This document shows positions 1,374 through 42,895 of a stretch of DNA of 64,000 nt, piece by piece; the first letter of the stretch is position 1; each line of letters begins with the position of its first letter. Made by a program: the position numbers and the translations under genes. Under the pieces are notes generated by a model. The model saw only the letters and a list, made by a program, of their open reading frames with translations, had not been told where the DNA came from and ran no database searches. The stretch comes from an uncultured Candidatus Binatia bacterium (GTDB taxonomy: Bacteria > Desulfobacterota > Binatia > DP-6), in contig CAZUDO010000056.1 in the NCBI GenBank assembly GCA_964618895.1, positions 104,744 to 168,743 on the forward strand, in the 5' to 3' direction.

Positions 1374-1496
1374 GGCGCAGGGGAGAGCAGGGGGCGTGCC
1401 AGGGTGTCCGCGCCGGCCCGCCGGCACCTCCGGCCCTCTGCGCCGTCAGCTTTGCGTCACGCCACCCCTTCGAGCAACACGATTGGAACAGATCCG

Positions 1497-1797
1497 TACA
1501 ACCCGACCCAAGACTTCGTCTCGGGTCGGGGCTCAAGATTGCCTGCCGGTGGAGAAGGCGAAGGCCGTGCCGCGGCCGGCGAAGCCGGCGCGGCAAACTT
1601 GGGATAGGACGGACAGAACGTCGGCGCCGCCGCCGACGACGTGTCTCCCGGTCTTCCCGGCCGGAGCGGATCCGCGGCGGCTACTGGTCCGCTCCGCTTT
1701 GCCGCGCCGGCTTTTGCCGGCCGCGGCACGGCCTTCGCCTTCTCCGCCGGCAGGCAATCTTGGGCCCCGACCCGAGACGAAGTCTTGGGTCGATCTC
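1497..1797. repeat. About 300-bp near-perfect palindromic (MITE-like) element with roughly 92-bp inverted-repeat arms, filling the pilT-pilB intergenic region
   Basis: Arm 1 (about 1505-1596) gacccaagacttcgtctcgggtcggggctcaagattgcctgccggtggagaaggcgaaggccgtgccgcggccggcgaagccggcgcggcaa is the reverse complement of arm 2 (about 1698-1790) with about 3 mismatches. The central roughly 100 bp contains an internal palindrome cgtcggcgccgccgccgacg. The element ends ...gtcttgggtcgatctc immediately before the pilB stop codon. Confidence 0.65.
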
Positions 1798-3479
<1,682 letters not shown>

Positions 3480-3483
<4 letters not shown>

Positions 3484-15526: not shown

Positions 15527-16324
15527 GTGCGACGAGTCACGACACAGGCGGTGCTGGTGGTTTTGGTGCTGGGGCTGGCGGCATGGATCGCCTATCCCGT
15601 CCTGCGTGCACGTGTCCTCGCCCTGGAGGAGACCTCGGCTGCGCGCGGCCTACGCCTCGCCCACGAGCTGGGATGTTTCAGCTGTCACGGGCCGGGCGGT
15701 ACCGGCGGAACGCCCAACCCCGGGAGCGAGGAGGGCAGCGTGCCGGCGTTCACCGAACGCACGCAGATGATGTACGTGAAGACGACCGATGACCTGCGCG
15801 GCTACATCCTGGATGGGGCCCCGCAACGCAAGCGCGACGACCCGGACTATCGGGCTCGGATGGGTGCCGCCGCCGTGCAGATGCCTGCCTACCGCGGATA
15901 CATCACGGACGCCCAGGTCGACGACCTGGTCGCGTACCTGCGTGCGGCGTCCGATCAAGTCCTTCCGGAACAGACGCTGGCGGCGAAGGGCGCCGAGCTG
16001 GCGATGGCGAACGGGTGCCTCGCGTGCCATGGACCGCTCGGGGCGGGGGGAGTGGCGAACCCCGGATCGTTCAAGGGCTACGTCCCCGCGTTCTGGGGCG
16101 CCGATTTCGACGACCTCGTGCGCGACGACGAGGAGTTGCGCCAGTGGATCGTGGCCGGCAAGATCCCGCGCATCGCCGAGCATCCCATCGGCCGCTACTT
16201 CTTCGAGCGTCAGGTCATCACGATGCCGGCCTACGAACGCTTTCTCGCCCCGACCGATGTCGATGCCTTGGTCGCGTACGTCCGCTGGATCCGCGCCGGT
16301 GCCTGGCGCCCGTTGCTTCACTAG
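15527..16324 (+). CDS. Dihaem c-type cytochrome
   Basis: N-terminal transmembrane/signal segment and two CxxCH haem-binding motifs (CFSCHG and CLACHG), each followed by a GxxNPGSxxG-type segment. Confidence 0.85.
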   Translation: MRRVTTQAVLVVLVLGLAAWIAYPVLRARVLALEETSAARGLRLAHELGCFSCHGPGGTGGTPNPGSEEGSVPAFTERTQMMYVKTTDDLRGYILDGAPQRKRDDPDYRARMGAAAVQMPAYRGYITDAQVDDLVAYLRAASDQVLPEQTLAAKGAELAMANGCLACHGPLGAGGVANPGSFKGYVPAFWGADFDDLVRDDEELRQWIVAGKIPRIAEHPIGRYFFERQVITMPAYERFLAPTDVDALVAYVRWIRAGAWRPLLH

Positions 16325-16369
16325 CTAGGAGGCGCCGGCACGCCGGCGATCACGTGCCCCACAGGGCCG

Positions 16370-26987: not shown

Positions 26988-27069
26988 GCCGAGGGCGTAG
27001 CGCCCGACCTCGCTCAGCCGCTCGATGTGCGTCGCCTCTGGCGATCGGGGACGGGCCAGTGGCGATCTC

Positions 27070-27855
27070 CTATCCGAGCATGATCATGCCGCCGTCGACG
27101 ACCAGCGTCTGACCCGTCATGAGGTCGGAGTCGGCGGATGCGAGGAACACGGCCGTGCCGGTGAGATCCTCGGGTTGCAGGGGCTTGCGAAGGGCGCTGA
27201 ACATCACGAGCGAACTGGCCAGCTCTTCGGGCACGATCTTCCGCGTGGCTTCCGTCATCGTCACACCGGGGGCGATCGCGTTCACGTTGATGCCCCAGGG
27301 CCCGAGGGCTCCGGCCATGTACTTGGTGAGCCCGGCGATGCCGATTTTGGCGACACTGTAGTGGAACGGCGGCATCGGCTTGTCCGCATCCTCGGTGTCG
27401 ACCAGGCCGACGTTGCCCAGGTACGCGGCCGTCGACGACTGGTGGATGATCTTGCCCGCGCGCTGGCGCTTCATGTGGCGCTCCACGGCGCGGCTCATGA
27501 GCCAGGCCCCGGTGAGGTTCACCGACAGCACACGGTTGAAGTAGGCGAGCGACGTCTGCTCGCGGTCGAGGTCGTAGTAGATGGCGGCGTTGTTCACCAG
27601 GATGTCGATGCGCCCGAAGCGGTCGATTGCCCGGGCGGCGAGCGCCTGTGTGCTCGCCTCGTCGGCCACGTCGACGGGCGCCGCCAGTGCGTCGGGGCCG
27701 AGCGCGCGACATTCCCCCGCCACGGCTTCGGCCTCGGGGTGGCGGATATCGGCCACGACCACGCGCGCCCCCTCGCGGGCGAAGCGCAGGGCGTAGGCTC
27801 GTCCGATCCCCTGAGCCGCGCCGGTAATGATCGCCACCCGGTCGTGCAGACGCAC
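27070..27855 (-). CDS. SDR-family oxidoreductase
   Basis: TGAAQGIGRA Rossmann motif, NNAAI, and the catalytic YSVAK tetrad region. Confidence 0.9.
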   Translation of the reverse strand: MRLHDRVAIITGAAQGIGRAYALRFAREGARVVVADIRHPEAEAVAGECRALGPDALAAPVDVADEASTQALAARAIDRFGRIDILVNNAAIYYDLDREQTSLAYFNRVLSVNLTGAWLMSRAVERHMKRQRAGKIIHQSSTAAYLGNVGLVDTEDADKPMPPFHYSVAKIGIAGLTKYMAGALGPWGINVNAIAPGVTMTEATRKIVPEELASSLVMFSALRKPLQPEDLTGTAVFLASADSDLMTGQTLVVDGGMIMLG

Positions 27856-40196: not shown

Positions 40197-40694
40197 ATGA
40201 GCAAGCCGAGCGACGACAGCGTCACGACGTTCGAGAGCCTCGGCGACACGCTCCGCGCGGCGCGCAAGCTCGCCACCGACCTCGCCGACGAGCCGCTGTT
40301 CGCGCGCTTAGTGAAGGTGTTCCAGGCCATGCCGGCGGAGGATCGCGCCACCGTGATCGACGCCATGGAGCGGGACGTGTACGCGCGCCTGCTCAGCCGC
40401 GCGACCGAGAAGGTCACCGGGCAGGCGGCGCGTCCCAATCCCCATGCCCGGCTCTACGTGCGCTCCCACGGCCCGGAGATGCGGCGCGAGGACCTGGAGC
40501 AGACGGAAATGACGCAGGCCACGCTGCGTGCCATCCGCGTGATGCCGTTCCTGATGATCCCGGAGATCTACGCCGAGTGGCAGCGCGCGACGCATGACGC
40601 CGTGGCACGTACCACGCCCGAGGAGCGCGCCCTGGTGCAGAAACTCGTCGAGGACGTGCTGGGGATGCTGGCGGAGGCGTCGACCCCGGCGTAG
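40197..40694 (+). CDS. Hypothetical protein
   Basis: A 165-aa ORF (MSKPSDDSVTTFESLGDTLRAARKLATDL...) with no recognisable domain; the ATG follows the upstream divergent region. Confidence 0.5.
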   Translation: MSKPSDDSVTTFESLGDTLRAARKLATDLADEPLFARLVKVFQAMPAEDRATVIDAMERDVYARLLSRATEKVTGQAARPNPHARLYVRSHGPEMRREDLEQTEMTQATLRAIRVMPFLMIPEIYAEWQRATHDAVARTTPEERALVQKLVEDVLGMLAEASTPA

Positions 40695-40699
40695 CTAGG

Positions 40700-40826
40700 A
40701 GAGCGACCCGAGACTCCGTCTCGGGTCGTGTACGGACGGCGAGCATGCGGCCCGGTCGACAGGCCAAACGGCGTGCCGCGGCCGGCATTCGCCTGATCCC
40801 CCGGCAAGGAGTCTTGGGTCGATCTC
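40700..40826. repeat. Second, truncated copy of the pilT-pilB palindromic repeat family
   Basis: Shares gacccgagac-tccg-tctcgggtcg (perfect 10-bp hairpin), cgtgccgcggccggc, and the terminal gagtcttgggtcgatctc with the element at 1497-1797; again ends immediately before a minus-strand stop codon (cta at 40827-40829). Confidence 0.55.
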
Positions 40827-41555
40827 CTAACCCCAGGCCGGCGTCAGCGCGCCGTCGGGCGTCCGCCAGTAGGGCGCCCACACGAGTGCCAGGAGCGATA
40901 CGGTGACGCCGCTCTTCTTCGGTCGCAGGGTGATCGTCGCGAGGGCTTCCGCCAGCGGGTCGTGCCGGGCGGCGAGCGCGTCGCTGGCGAATCGCGCTCG
41001 GTCTGCAGGCGACCGATGAACCACGTGCCCGCGTTGGCGAGCCCCTTGTAGTCGAGGTCGACGGGATTCTGCGTGGCGAGCACGACGCCGAGCCCGAATG
41101 CGCGCGCCTGCTTCAATAACAGGAGCAGTGGGCCCTTGGCCGGCGGGTTCGCGACCGGTGGCATGAAGCCGACCACCTCGTCCATCACCAGGAGCGCGCG
41201 CAGGCTGGTGGTGCCGGCCTGCGTGCGCATCCAGGCGAGCACCTGCCCGAGCAGCAACGACACGAAGAACATCCGCTCACCGTCGCCCAGGTGCGCGATC
41301 GACAGGATGGCGACGCGGGGCTTTCCCTGCGGCGTGTAGAGCAGCGCCTGCGGGTCGAGGGGTGTACCCTCGAGCCACACTCCGAACCCGGGCGCGGCGA
41401 GCAGATTGTTGAGCGCCATCGCCAGGGCGAAGCGGTCCTTGGCGGGGAAGAACGACTCCAGCTCGAGCACCCCGATCCGCGTGACGGGCGGCGACTGGAT
41501 ATCCTGGATCAGCGCGCCCGAGGTAGAAGACACCCAGCTTCTCGAAATCGTCCAT
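40827..41555 (-). pseudogene. Degraded HerA/DUF87-like (FEKLG-type) ATPase gene: N-terminal 14 aa joined to the C-terminal region, with internal deletion and two frameshifts
   Basis: Frame a: [14 protein letters not shown] (typical N-terminus of about 500-900-aa DUF87 ATPases). Frame b: ...[71 protein letters not shown] (Walker-B/C-terminal block). Frame c: ...[21 protein letters not shown] stop. No Walker A is present, and the total is only about 730 bp. Confidence 0.5.
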
Positions 41556-41638
41556 GGGAGGCTCCCGTCGCGGAGGCGTAGTCTGCCCCGCGCCGCCCGG
41601 CAGCGTCCAGGGGCGACGGTTGCGCTCGGCGCTCGGAG

Positions 41639-42895
41639 GTGAGCATTGCCCCGCCTCGCCTCACATCGATGACCGCCTCGCCTCCGCACGCCACCGCCAG
41701 TCGCGCAGCCGTCGTCTTCATCTTCTTCACCGCGGTGCTCGACATGCTCGCGCTCGGGATGATCGTGCCCGTACTGCCGAAGCTCGTGGTCACCCTCGAG
41801 GGCGGGGATACGGCGCATGCGGCGCGTATCTTCGGGCTGTTCGGCACGGCCTGGGCCCTCATGCAGTTCTTCTTCTCGCCCGTGCTGGGCGCTCTCTCGG
41901 ACCGGTTCGGGCGGCGCCCGGTGATCCTGCTCTCGAACCTGGGCCTCGGCGTCGACTACGTCTTCATGGCCCTGGCGCCCACGCTGCGCTGGCTGTTCGT
42001 GGGGCGCGTAATCTCGGGCATCACCGCCGCCAGCACCGCGACCGCCGGGGCGTACATCGCCGACGTGACCCCGCCCGAACGCCGCGCGGCCGGCTTCGGC
42101 ATGCTGGGCGCCGCCTTCGGGATCGGCTTCGTGATCGGGCCGGCTGTGGGTGGCTTCCTCGGCACCATCGATCCGCGCCTGCCGTTCTGGGTCGCGGGCG
42201 GGCTGAGCCTGCTGAACGCGCTCTACGGCCTGATCGTGCTGCCCGAGTCGCTCCCGCCGGCGCGACGGGCGCCGTTCTCGTGGCGACGTGCGAACCCGAT
42301 CGGGGCGCTTGGCCTGCTGCGCTCGAACCGTAAGCTGCTCGGCCTCGCGATGGTCAACTTCCTGCGCAATCTGGCGCACGTCGTCCTGCCGAGCACGTCG
42401 GTGTTGTACGTGAGCCACCGGTACGGCTGGGACGGACGCATGGTGGGGCTCAACCTGGCGGCCATCGGCGTGTGCTCGCTGGTCGTCCAGGGCGGTTTCG
42501 TGCAGCCGGTGGTGACGCGCTTCGGCGAGCGCGGCACGTTGGTCGTCGGCATGCTCTGCGGCGTAGCAGGCTTCGCGGTCTCCGGCCTGGCCACCACCGG
42601 CGCGCTCTTCTGGGGCAGCGTGCCGCTGCTGGCGTTGTGGGGGCTATCGGGTCCGCCGCTCCAGGGCCTGATGACCCGTCGCGTCGGTCCCTCCGAGCAG
42701 GGCCAGCTCCAGGGCGCCAACAGCAGCCTGCAGGGCATCGCCCAGCTGATCGGCCCCGGCATCTTCACGGTGGCCTTCGCCAACGGTATCGACCCCCACC
42801 ACAGCTGGGACGTCCCCGGCGCAGCCTTCCTGCTCGGCGCCCTCCTGCTGGTGGTGGCGACAACGGCCGCGTGGCGCGTGACGCAAGCGCGCTAG
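41639..42895 (+). CDS. MFS transporter (DHA1 / TetA-like efflux family)
   Basis: 12 transmembrane segments; motif A-like [14 protein letters not shown]; the start may be the internal ATG at 41669 (MTASPP...). Confidence 0.85.

Follow-up and report, generated by a model that had tools for sequence, protein, structure and literature searches.

A palindromic repeat at the pilB-pilT junction of an uncultured Candidatus Binatia bacterium and its dispersed family

In a 64-kb stretch of DNA from an uncultured Candidatus Binatia bacterium (the whole of which we call the window), a near-perfect palindrome of about 300 bp separates pilB from pilT, which encode two motor ATPases of the type IV pilus. 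Its position raises the question of whether it belongs to the regulation of these genes or is a repeat that came to lie between them. We judge it highly likely that the element is a non-autonomous palindromic repeat, mobile or recently mobile, that inserted 3' of the pilB stop codon and is of the kind represented by MITEs (transposable elements of miniature size with inverted repeats) and by REPINs (paired repetitive extragenic palindromes, or REPs, that form a hairpin). The family to which it belongs is apparently undescribed, and it appears to be of an ordinary known kind of small mobile palindromic element.

The palindrome between pilB and pilT

An inverted-repeat search placed the element, hereafter copy 1, at positions 1499-1797 of the window (299 bp, no strand assigned), between a TA dinucleotide at 1497-1498 and the pilB stop codon at 1798-1800. 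Positions 1504-1583 and 1713-1792 form an inverted repeat of 80 nt that is 96% complementary, and a further 16 nt (1582-1597 and 1698-1713), offset by a 1-nt indel, are 100% complementary. Each arm is about 95 nt long, and the two differ by 3 mismatches and 1 indel. They enclose a variable center of about 100 nt (1598-1697) that contains small palindromes of its own and is poorly conserved across full-length family members. When positions 1480-1810 were folded as RNA in the pilB sense, the minimum energy was -268.6 kcal/mol, compared with -152.7 +/- 6.1 for shuffled sequences (z = -19; 0 of 100 shuffles were as low). Both outer ends consist of a perfect 11-bp hairpin, HP1 (CGACCCRAGAC-NNN-GTCTYGGGTCG), found at 1504-1528 on the left (CGACCCAAGAC-TTC-GTCTCGGGTCG) and at 1768-1792 on the right. 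A second conserved hairpin, HP3, was recognized toward the inside of each arm in the family alignment, at 1568-1595 (TGCCGCGGCCGGC-GAA-GCCGGCGCGGCA) and at 1700-1728. The right end of the element reads ...GTCTTGGGTCG ATCTC (1782-1797), in which ATCTC (1793-1797) is the outer terminus; immediately after it comes TCA (1798-1800), which is the TGA stop codon of pilB in reverse complement.

Both flanking genes lie on the minus strand, and the order of transcription is pilB, element, pilT, with pilC after pilT. The type IV-A pilus assembly ATPase gene pilB occupies 1798-3483 (TIGR02538, 755 bits against a cutoff of 676), and the PilT/PilU-type retraction ATPase gene pilT, downstream of the element, occupies 291-1373 (TIGR01420, 479 bits against a cutoff of 319). 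An earlier note, made from the sequence of the window alone, had described a near-perfect palindrome of about 300 bp with a palindromic center that directly abuts the pilB stop codon, and the inverted-repeat search, the fold and the junction at 1797/1798 all agree with it. The same note had the element filling the whole pilT-pilB spacer, which is not the case: the spacer extends from 1374 to 1797, and its part from 1374 to 1496 is conserved sequence upstream of pilT.

The note had also attributed the window to Myxococcota. The closest named homologs of its PilB are from Candidatus Binatia (79-81% identity), and the host is probably a member of the Binatota. We compared the pilB-pilT regions of five relatives (L101-L105) whose PilB proteins are 81-90% identical to that of the window. 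The gene order aroE-pilB-pilT-pilC, the C-terminus of pilB and the position of its stop codon are shared with these relatives, the stop being TGA in four of the five and TAA in L103. None of the five orthologous spacers contains a match to the profile of the repeat unit, and they measure 131-339 nt, as opposed to 424 nt in the window. Two blocks downstream of the insertion point are conserved in the relatives, namely GTACGGAnCTGTTCC, which is palindromic (window positions 1485-1495), and TGGCACG-N4-CTGCT (1386-1401). Because the five relatives lack the element while sharing the sequences on either side of it, copy 1 is most simply read as an insertion specific to this lineage, with the stop codon of pilB on one side and the control region of pilT, left intact, on the other. 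This comparison of spacer lengths was the one that the earlier note had asked for, and absence from relatives is what it had predicted for a recent insertion.

The second of these blocks resembles a sigma-54-type promoter (TGGCACGCCCCCTGCT, minus strand) and has remained intact despite the insertion. It is the sole match in the window, where 0.02 would be expected, and it is conserved in L102-L105. About 12 nt separate it from the pilT ATG downstream, so that the mRNA of pilT would be nearly leaderless. The other block, GGAACAGATCC in the window and GGAACTGTTCC in L101, adjoins the element and is conserved in the pilB-pilT spacers of several relatives; it might serve the sigma-54 promoter as a binding site for an activator. 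At this junction copy 1 would add a very stable hairpin to the 3' end of the pilB message or to any transcript that reads through. A search of positions 1200-2000 found no terminator-like site of the canonical intrinsic kind, and there is no U-tract after the element, the sense-strand sequence past the hairpin being GGGTTGTACGGATC. Since no canonical terminator follows the hairpin, the relatives manage without the element and pilT keeps its own sigma-54-type promoter, the net effect of copy 1 is likely neutral, or at most a modest insulation or stabilization of the pilB message. As a separate observation, the spacer of L103 holds two tandem copies of an unrelated G+C-rich repeat of 86 nt (3183-3352) that start at the TAA stop codon; repeats seem to have landed in the pilB-pilT spacer more than once.

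The repeat family, its hairpins and its flanks

A scan for the HP1 pattern in one genome per species found at least 100 loci, and the family counts that follow rest on these loci together with the window. Almost all of the loci are in metagenome-assembled genomes (MAGs) labelled Candidatus Binatia, "Deltaproteobacteria", "delta proteobacterium" or "Thermodesulfobacteriota"; among the loci listed, about 12 MAGs with the label Binatia or "delta proteobacterium" hold bona fide units. Searched with nhmmer, a profile of the arms gave 165 unit matches, which form 43 convergent pairs in addition to solo units. The two arms of copy 1 match this profile at 1500-1597 on the plus strand (E = 4e-21) and at 1798-1698 on the minus strand (E = 1e-19). 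Individual MAGs carry many copies, with at least 21 blocks in CAWFFN01 and at least about 22 in CAYOIZ01. These numbers bear out the earlier claim of a dispersed repeat family as opposed to a gene-specific regulator. The earlier note would have abandoned that claim had there been only two copies and the same sequence in orthologous pilT-pilB spacers; what we found was a family of at least 100 loci and five spacers without the element. The HP1 scan found nothing in viral contigs.

The repeat unit is about 100 nt long and comprises, from the outside inward, a terminus that is usually C-TA-GGAGnG, HP1, a linker with GCGAG(C/A)rTG, a variable segment, and HP3, for which the family consensus is TGCCGCGGCCGGC-RAA-GCCGGCGCGGCA. 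Full-length elements measure 260-290 nt from HP1 to HP1 and consist of two inverted units around a variable center. In most of them the arms differ (types A and B), with an arm-to-arm identity of 70-85%; at 92%, copy 1 is the most perfect palindrome among the 23 compared. Shorter forms with the same termini include elements of 90-180 nt, in which the arms overlap at the palindromic HP3, and elements of 37 nt that consist of HP1 only. The terminal inverted repeat, GGAGnG plus CGACCCRAGAC, is present at both ends of the 43 pairs and of the minimal forms. Overall, copies range from 37 to 300 bp, and the variable center holds no conserved open reading frame (ORF) and no transposase gene. In the inner part of arm A of many full-length members (L058, L056, L052, L014, L091, L010 and others) we also noted the sequence TGGCACGCCCGAGGCT, which has a sigma-54-like GG-N10-GC spacing, points toward the center of the element and is absent from copy 1.

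Pairing in both conserved hairpins has been maintained by compensatory change. Across 89 aligned units, HP1 and HP3 together are paired in 97.2% of cells, compared with 32-42% when the partners are slid, and both sides have changed in 9 of 23 pairs; the observed values were reached by 0 of 500 shuffles. Family-wide, the HP1 helix is paired in 98.7% of cells and has three pairs with compensatory changes, and the HP3 helix is paired in 95.9% and has six. G-U intermediates are almost absent from both. This pattern is consistent with selection on the DNA, either as a palindrome or as a single strand, and also with the two strands being used equally. We considered a middle hairpin (HP2) common to the whole family and rejected it, since its pairing is specific to subfamilies and its register is not conserved. 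Rfam 15 gave no match at gathering score in the whole window or for L058, a typical family member, and the plant microRNA precursors MIR1437 (64 bits, where the gathering score is 168) and MIR1858 (24 bits, where it is 137) were matched below threshold only, as artefacts that a long hairpin rich in G+C produces. We also rejected a DNA-uptake sequence: all seven exact copies of the 11-mer half-site are inside elements, and copies with one mismatch are not enriched (11 against 6.8 expected).

Copies of the family differ between orthologous sites. A copy present in L038 is absent from the corresponding site in the window, one in L089 is absent from L099, and one in L046 corresponds to a remnant in the window. 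At other sites the same position is occupied by forms of different size, 166 nt in L074 and 303 nt in L040, or a solo unit in L071 and 121 nt in L100. The probable remnant in the window is an element terminus, TAGGAGATCG, at 27063-27072 on the minus strand, at the stop codon of a gene whose ortholog in L046 carries a full unit. Three matches to the terminus sequence occur in the window, where 0.26 would be expected, and the other two are the ends of copy 2; the sequence at 27063-27072 is likely the footprint of a lost copy.

Copy 2 is an internally deleted member at 40696-40829 that retains both termini (TA-GGAGAG-HP1-...-half HP1-ATCTCC-TA; profile E = 4e-17), and it corresponds to the truncated second copy that had been reported at 40700-40826. 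It makes up the whole spacer between two convergent genes. The plus-strand gene ends with a TAG at 40692-40694, and the terminal CTA of the element (40827-40829) is the TAG stop codon of an ATPase reading frame on the minus strand. The copy is identical, base for base, in an independent Logan assembly of run SRR9952630. No clean empty site was obtained for it. The 165-aa protein encoded beside it has relatives of no more than 63% identity, and in the best contig the gene calls show the convergent genes overlapping, which leaves no room for an element. The minus-strand ATPase-like gene (40827-42418) appears to be frameshifted at about 40990-41000, with a plausible C-terminus that runs in another frame to the TAG of copy 2, and the Logan assembly has the same sequence. 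Its product had no NCBIfam match and, judged by eye, is possibly HerA-like.

The flanks of most two-ended copies follow the layout C-TA-GGAGnG|HP1...HP1|CnCTCC-TA-G. The bases outside TA vary independently in 10 informative flank pairs, of which one fits a direct repeat of 4 bp and one fits an extended inverted repeat. Because the outer bases are independent, a 2-bp duplication of TA accounts for the flanks better than either a duplication of 4 bp or an inverted repeat that extends further. A four-base YTAR duplication of the IS5 type is disfavored, as it is seen in only one of the 10 informative pairs (L090, CTAA/CTAA). TA stands beside most copies, but CTAG is itself palindromic, and no clean pair of empty and filled sites was obtained that would display the duplication.

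The ends of the elements are closely associated with stop codons. At 77 of 122 ends, the stop codon of a long ORF with a high G+C content at third codon positions (GC3) falls within 14 nt of HP1, compared with 2.8% of random positions. We then applied strict coding criteria against antisense shadow ORFs (GC3 of at least 0.8, and GC1 minus GC2, the corresponding values for first and second positions, of at least 0.08). By these criteria 40 of 64 ends (about 62%) abut a genuine stop codon within 14 nt, mostly within 0-6 nt, compared with 0.65% of random positions, and 14 of 32 two-ended copies (44%) are flush with genuine genes on both sides. In the commonest layout a TAG 5 nt before HP1 is the terminal TAG of the element, and where this TAG varies beside an ORF, the variant is another stop codon, TAA or TGA. 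We saw no bias of either arm type toward the stop-codon side. The tetranucleotide CTAG is itself rare, with 11 observed in the window against 176 expected and 183 observed in 734 kb of loci against 1939 expected, an overall under-representation of 10- to 16-fold. Element termini account for about one third of all CTAGs, and of the others 36% serve genuine genes as stop codons.

Some hairpins that resemble the family in part were also encountered. One MAG labelled Myxococcota (CAMYLJ01) contains a distinct element of exactly 75 nt from CTAG to CTAG (L024, L037, L044, L047, L062, L077, L080 and L088), which combines the hairpin GGAGCCC-GAA-GGGCTCC with HP1 and lies flush with the stop codons of convergent genes; another MAG, CAWGJT01, has related elements of 76 and 108 nt (L049 and L066). 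The 75-nt element hints at a wider superfamily. Within the window, positions 16321-16350 read CAC TAG C TAG GAGG followed by a different hairpin, CGCCGGCACGCCGGCG, and so show the layout of stop codon, GGAG and hairpin without HP1. A single exact HP1 hairpin in AT-rich context in a MAG labelled Saccharibacteria (L035, 2671-2695) is probably a coincidence, given that about 0.3 chance matches are expected in the collection.

How the copies may have spread

If the family is a mobile repeat, its copies would have been moved in trans by a transposase that recognizes the termini and HP1. The most likely enzyme would be a TA-duplicating DDE transposase of the IS630/Tc1-mariner type with a preference for CTAG, a type favored because TA is present at both ends of most copies, the outer bases are independent and the 37-nt forms keep both termini. 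IS630 prefers CTAG and duplicates TA, and Correia elements are another example of elements that insert at TA. With CTAG scarce and much of it at stop codons, insertions would tend to land at the ends of genes, and after insertion into the TA of a stop codon, the TA and the first G of the element would rebuild a TAG stop.

Small size, lack of coding capacity, terminal inverted repeats, TA flanks, dispersed copies and internally deleted derivatives are all shared with the IS630-related MITEs, such as the RUP element of Streptococcus pneumoniae, whose mobilization in trans is attributed to IS630-Spn1 (PMC2229807). However, the present family differs from them in several respects. No cognate insertion sequence was found in the 8-kb blocks around the 100 loci listed, the TA duplication is inferred from the flanks instead of from a pair of empty and filled sites, and the termini hold a perfect hairpin kept by compensatory changes, a feature that the terminal inverted repeats of IS630 do not typically have. 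The family is also tied to stop codons far more strongly than RUP or Correia elements are generally said to be.

Several observations weigh against the view that copy 1 is a mobile repeat of this kind. No transposase with matching ends was found in the 8-kb blocks, and when 1287 ORFs from the loci were compared all against all, no multi-copy protein emerged. Copy 1 itself lacks a clean target-site duplication: one side reads TGA|GAGAT-HP1, without a TA, and on the other, HP1-GGTTG-TA-CGG, the TA may be host sequence, as L101 has GGCGTG-TA-CGG there. The terminus TGA-GAGAT-HP1 is shared by L050, from another genome, which has the same asymmetric ends. A 21-mer specific to the arms of copy 1 found no further copy in a metagenome collection, the single match being a chance one in unrelated low-GC DNA. 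Loss from the five relatives, in place of gain in the window, is also conceivable. Moreover, only 2 of 122 free CTAG sites are double stops, and target availability alone therefore fails to explain the flush placement on both sides; saturation of sites, loss of flanking DNA at insertion (as in L089 compared with L099) and selection for a role at 3' ends are three candidate explanations. Finally, the near absence of G-U pairs and the conservation of hairpins that could form in single strands would suit an HUH transposase too. Two candidates for an autonomous element were rejected: in L068 two HP1 copies 5.1 kb apart enclose ordinary genes, and in L002 a pair 805 bp apart brackets a gene that is L,D-transpeptidase-like by motifs only.

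The placement at stop codons also bears on whether the hairpins are structural elements selected by the host as bidirectional signals at 3' ends, a tentative possibility that is compatible with a mobile origin. Such signals would act in termination, in protection from 3' exonucleases, or on translation termination, which a hairpin located 5 nt beyond the stop codon would modulate. In favor of this, 62% of ends are at real stops, 14 of the 32 two-ended copies constitute an entire convergent spacer (far above the prediction from free CTAGs), TAA or TGA replaces an altered terminal TAG beside an ORF, and the hairpins are conserved across about 12 MAGs. REPs of E. coli within about 15 nt of a stop codon can reportedly stall ribosomes and lower expression, which we also count in its favor. 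However, the element is followed by neither a U-tract nor a canonical terminator, its center and HP2 region are not conserved, and its absence from the five relatives means that it is not needed for expression of pilB or pilT. Purifying selection against harmful insertions would likewise enrich gene ends.

Movement of a REP- or REPIN-type element by an HUH tyrosine transposase, either a REP-associated tyrosine transposase (RAYT) or a TnpA like that of IS200/IS605, seems unlikely to us, although the element would still be a mobile repeat and only the enzyme would differ. HP1 would then be read as a hairpin in single-stranded DNA, TAG or CTAG as the cleavage tag, and full-length copies as head-to-head dimers. 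GTAG and CGTC REPs, REPINs and bacterial interspersed mosaic elements (BIMEs) comprise extragenic palindromic singletons and head-to-head dimers that can fold into one large hairpin, and the partners of a REPIN dimer can differ (heterodimers). Most REPs lie downstream of genes, in spacers whose ORFs are unidirectional or convergent, and in tagged REPs it is often the terminal tag that gives the adjacent ORF its TAG stop (Di Nocera et al. 2013, PMC3733652). In the present family, too, there are singletons, solo units and head-to-head dimers with differing arms, the tag supplies TAG stops as for GTAG REPs, and HP1 and HP3 are kept by Watson-Crick changes. Copy 1 and L050, asymmetric and without evident duplication, and the related 75-nt element with its two different subterminal hairpins are also consistent with such an enzyme. 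These same features recall the palindrome-associated transposable elements (PATEs) derived from IS200/IS605, which have conserved subterminal hairpins and, in common with copy 1, L050 and the 75-nt relative, asymmetric copies without obvious duplication.

In contrast to REPs, which are imperfect palindromes of 20-40 nt with an unpaired GTAG or CGTC tag at one end, this family has (C)TAG as its tag, placed 5-6 nt from the stem of the 25-nt palindrome HP1 and found on both sides even of the 37-nt forms. The unit, with two conserved hairpins, is about 100 nt instead of 20-40 nt, and full copies are about 280-300 nt compared with about 70-110 nt for REPs and REPINs. The host, moreover, probably belongs to the candidate phylum Binatota, and neither an associated RAYT gene nor a RAYT-like gene flanked by HP1 was identified in the 8-kb blocks; the gene bracketed in L002 is, as noted above, L,D-transpeptidase-like. 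Unlike PATEs, most copies are symmetric, with inverted termini and TA on both sides, and no TnpA or TnpB gene is nearby.

A broader proposal, which we regard as rather improbable, is that of a superfamily of CTAG-bounded hairpins in Binatota and at least one Myxococcota MAG that is specialized for stop codons. Its members would insert, or be retained, at the TA of a stop codon, would rebuild a stop on each side and would have saturated convergent junctions. There they may have been co-opted as bidirectional signals for 3' ends or as modulators of translation termination, and the HP1-recognizing transposase would represent a type for which no link to elements of this sort has yet been made.

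An ancient regulatory structure specific to the pilB-pilT operon is very improbable: its placement, with a pilus motor gene on either side, and its extremely stable fold would suit one, but the element is absent from the five orthologous spacers, the same family stands beside unrelated genes in many genomes, and the conserved motifs upstream of pilT lie outside it. A chimeric or fold-back join in the MAG contig is scarcely credible either, for although long palindromes can come from errors of amplification or assembly and independent assemblies have no record of exactly these PilB and PilT proteins, the gene order across the element is normal, copy 1 has the full family anatomy including a distinct center, copy 2 is identical in the Logan assembly, and the family is present in many MAGs that were assembled independently and whose contigs reach 1.9-2.0 Mb.

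Significance for Binatia genomes

Insertion of a mobile or recently mobile repeat next to the pilB stop codon remains our preferred interpretation, and for the pilus locus it means that the palindrome is a lineage-specific addition and not part of pilus regulation, with pilT retaining its sigma-54-type promoter. For annotation, a widespread repeat in an uncultured phylum is of practical concern, as it breaks assemblies, supplies stop codons and puts very stable hairpins in 3' untranslated regions. Those who annotate Binatia MAGs would do well to mask the repeat and to avoid reading it as a regulatory RNA. Beyond this, the association with stop codons, combined with the extreme avoidance of CTAG, offers a clean natural system in which the contributions of target choice, purifying selection and co-option may be set against one another.

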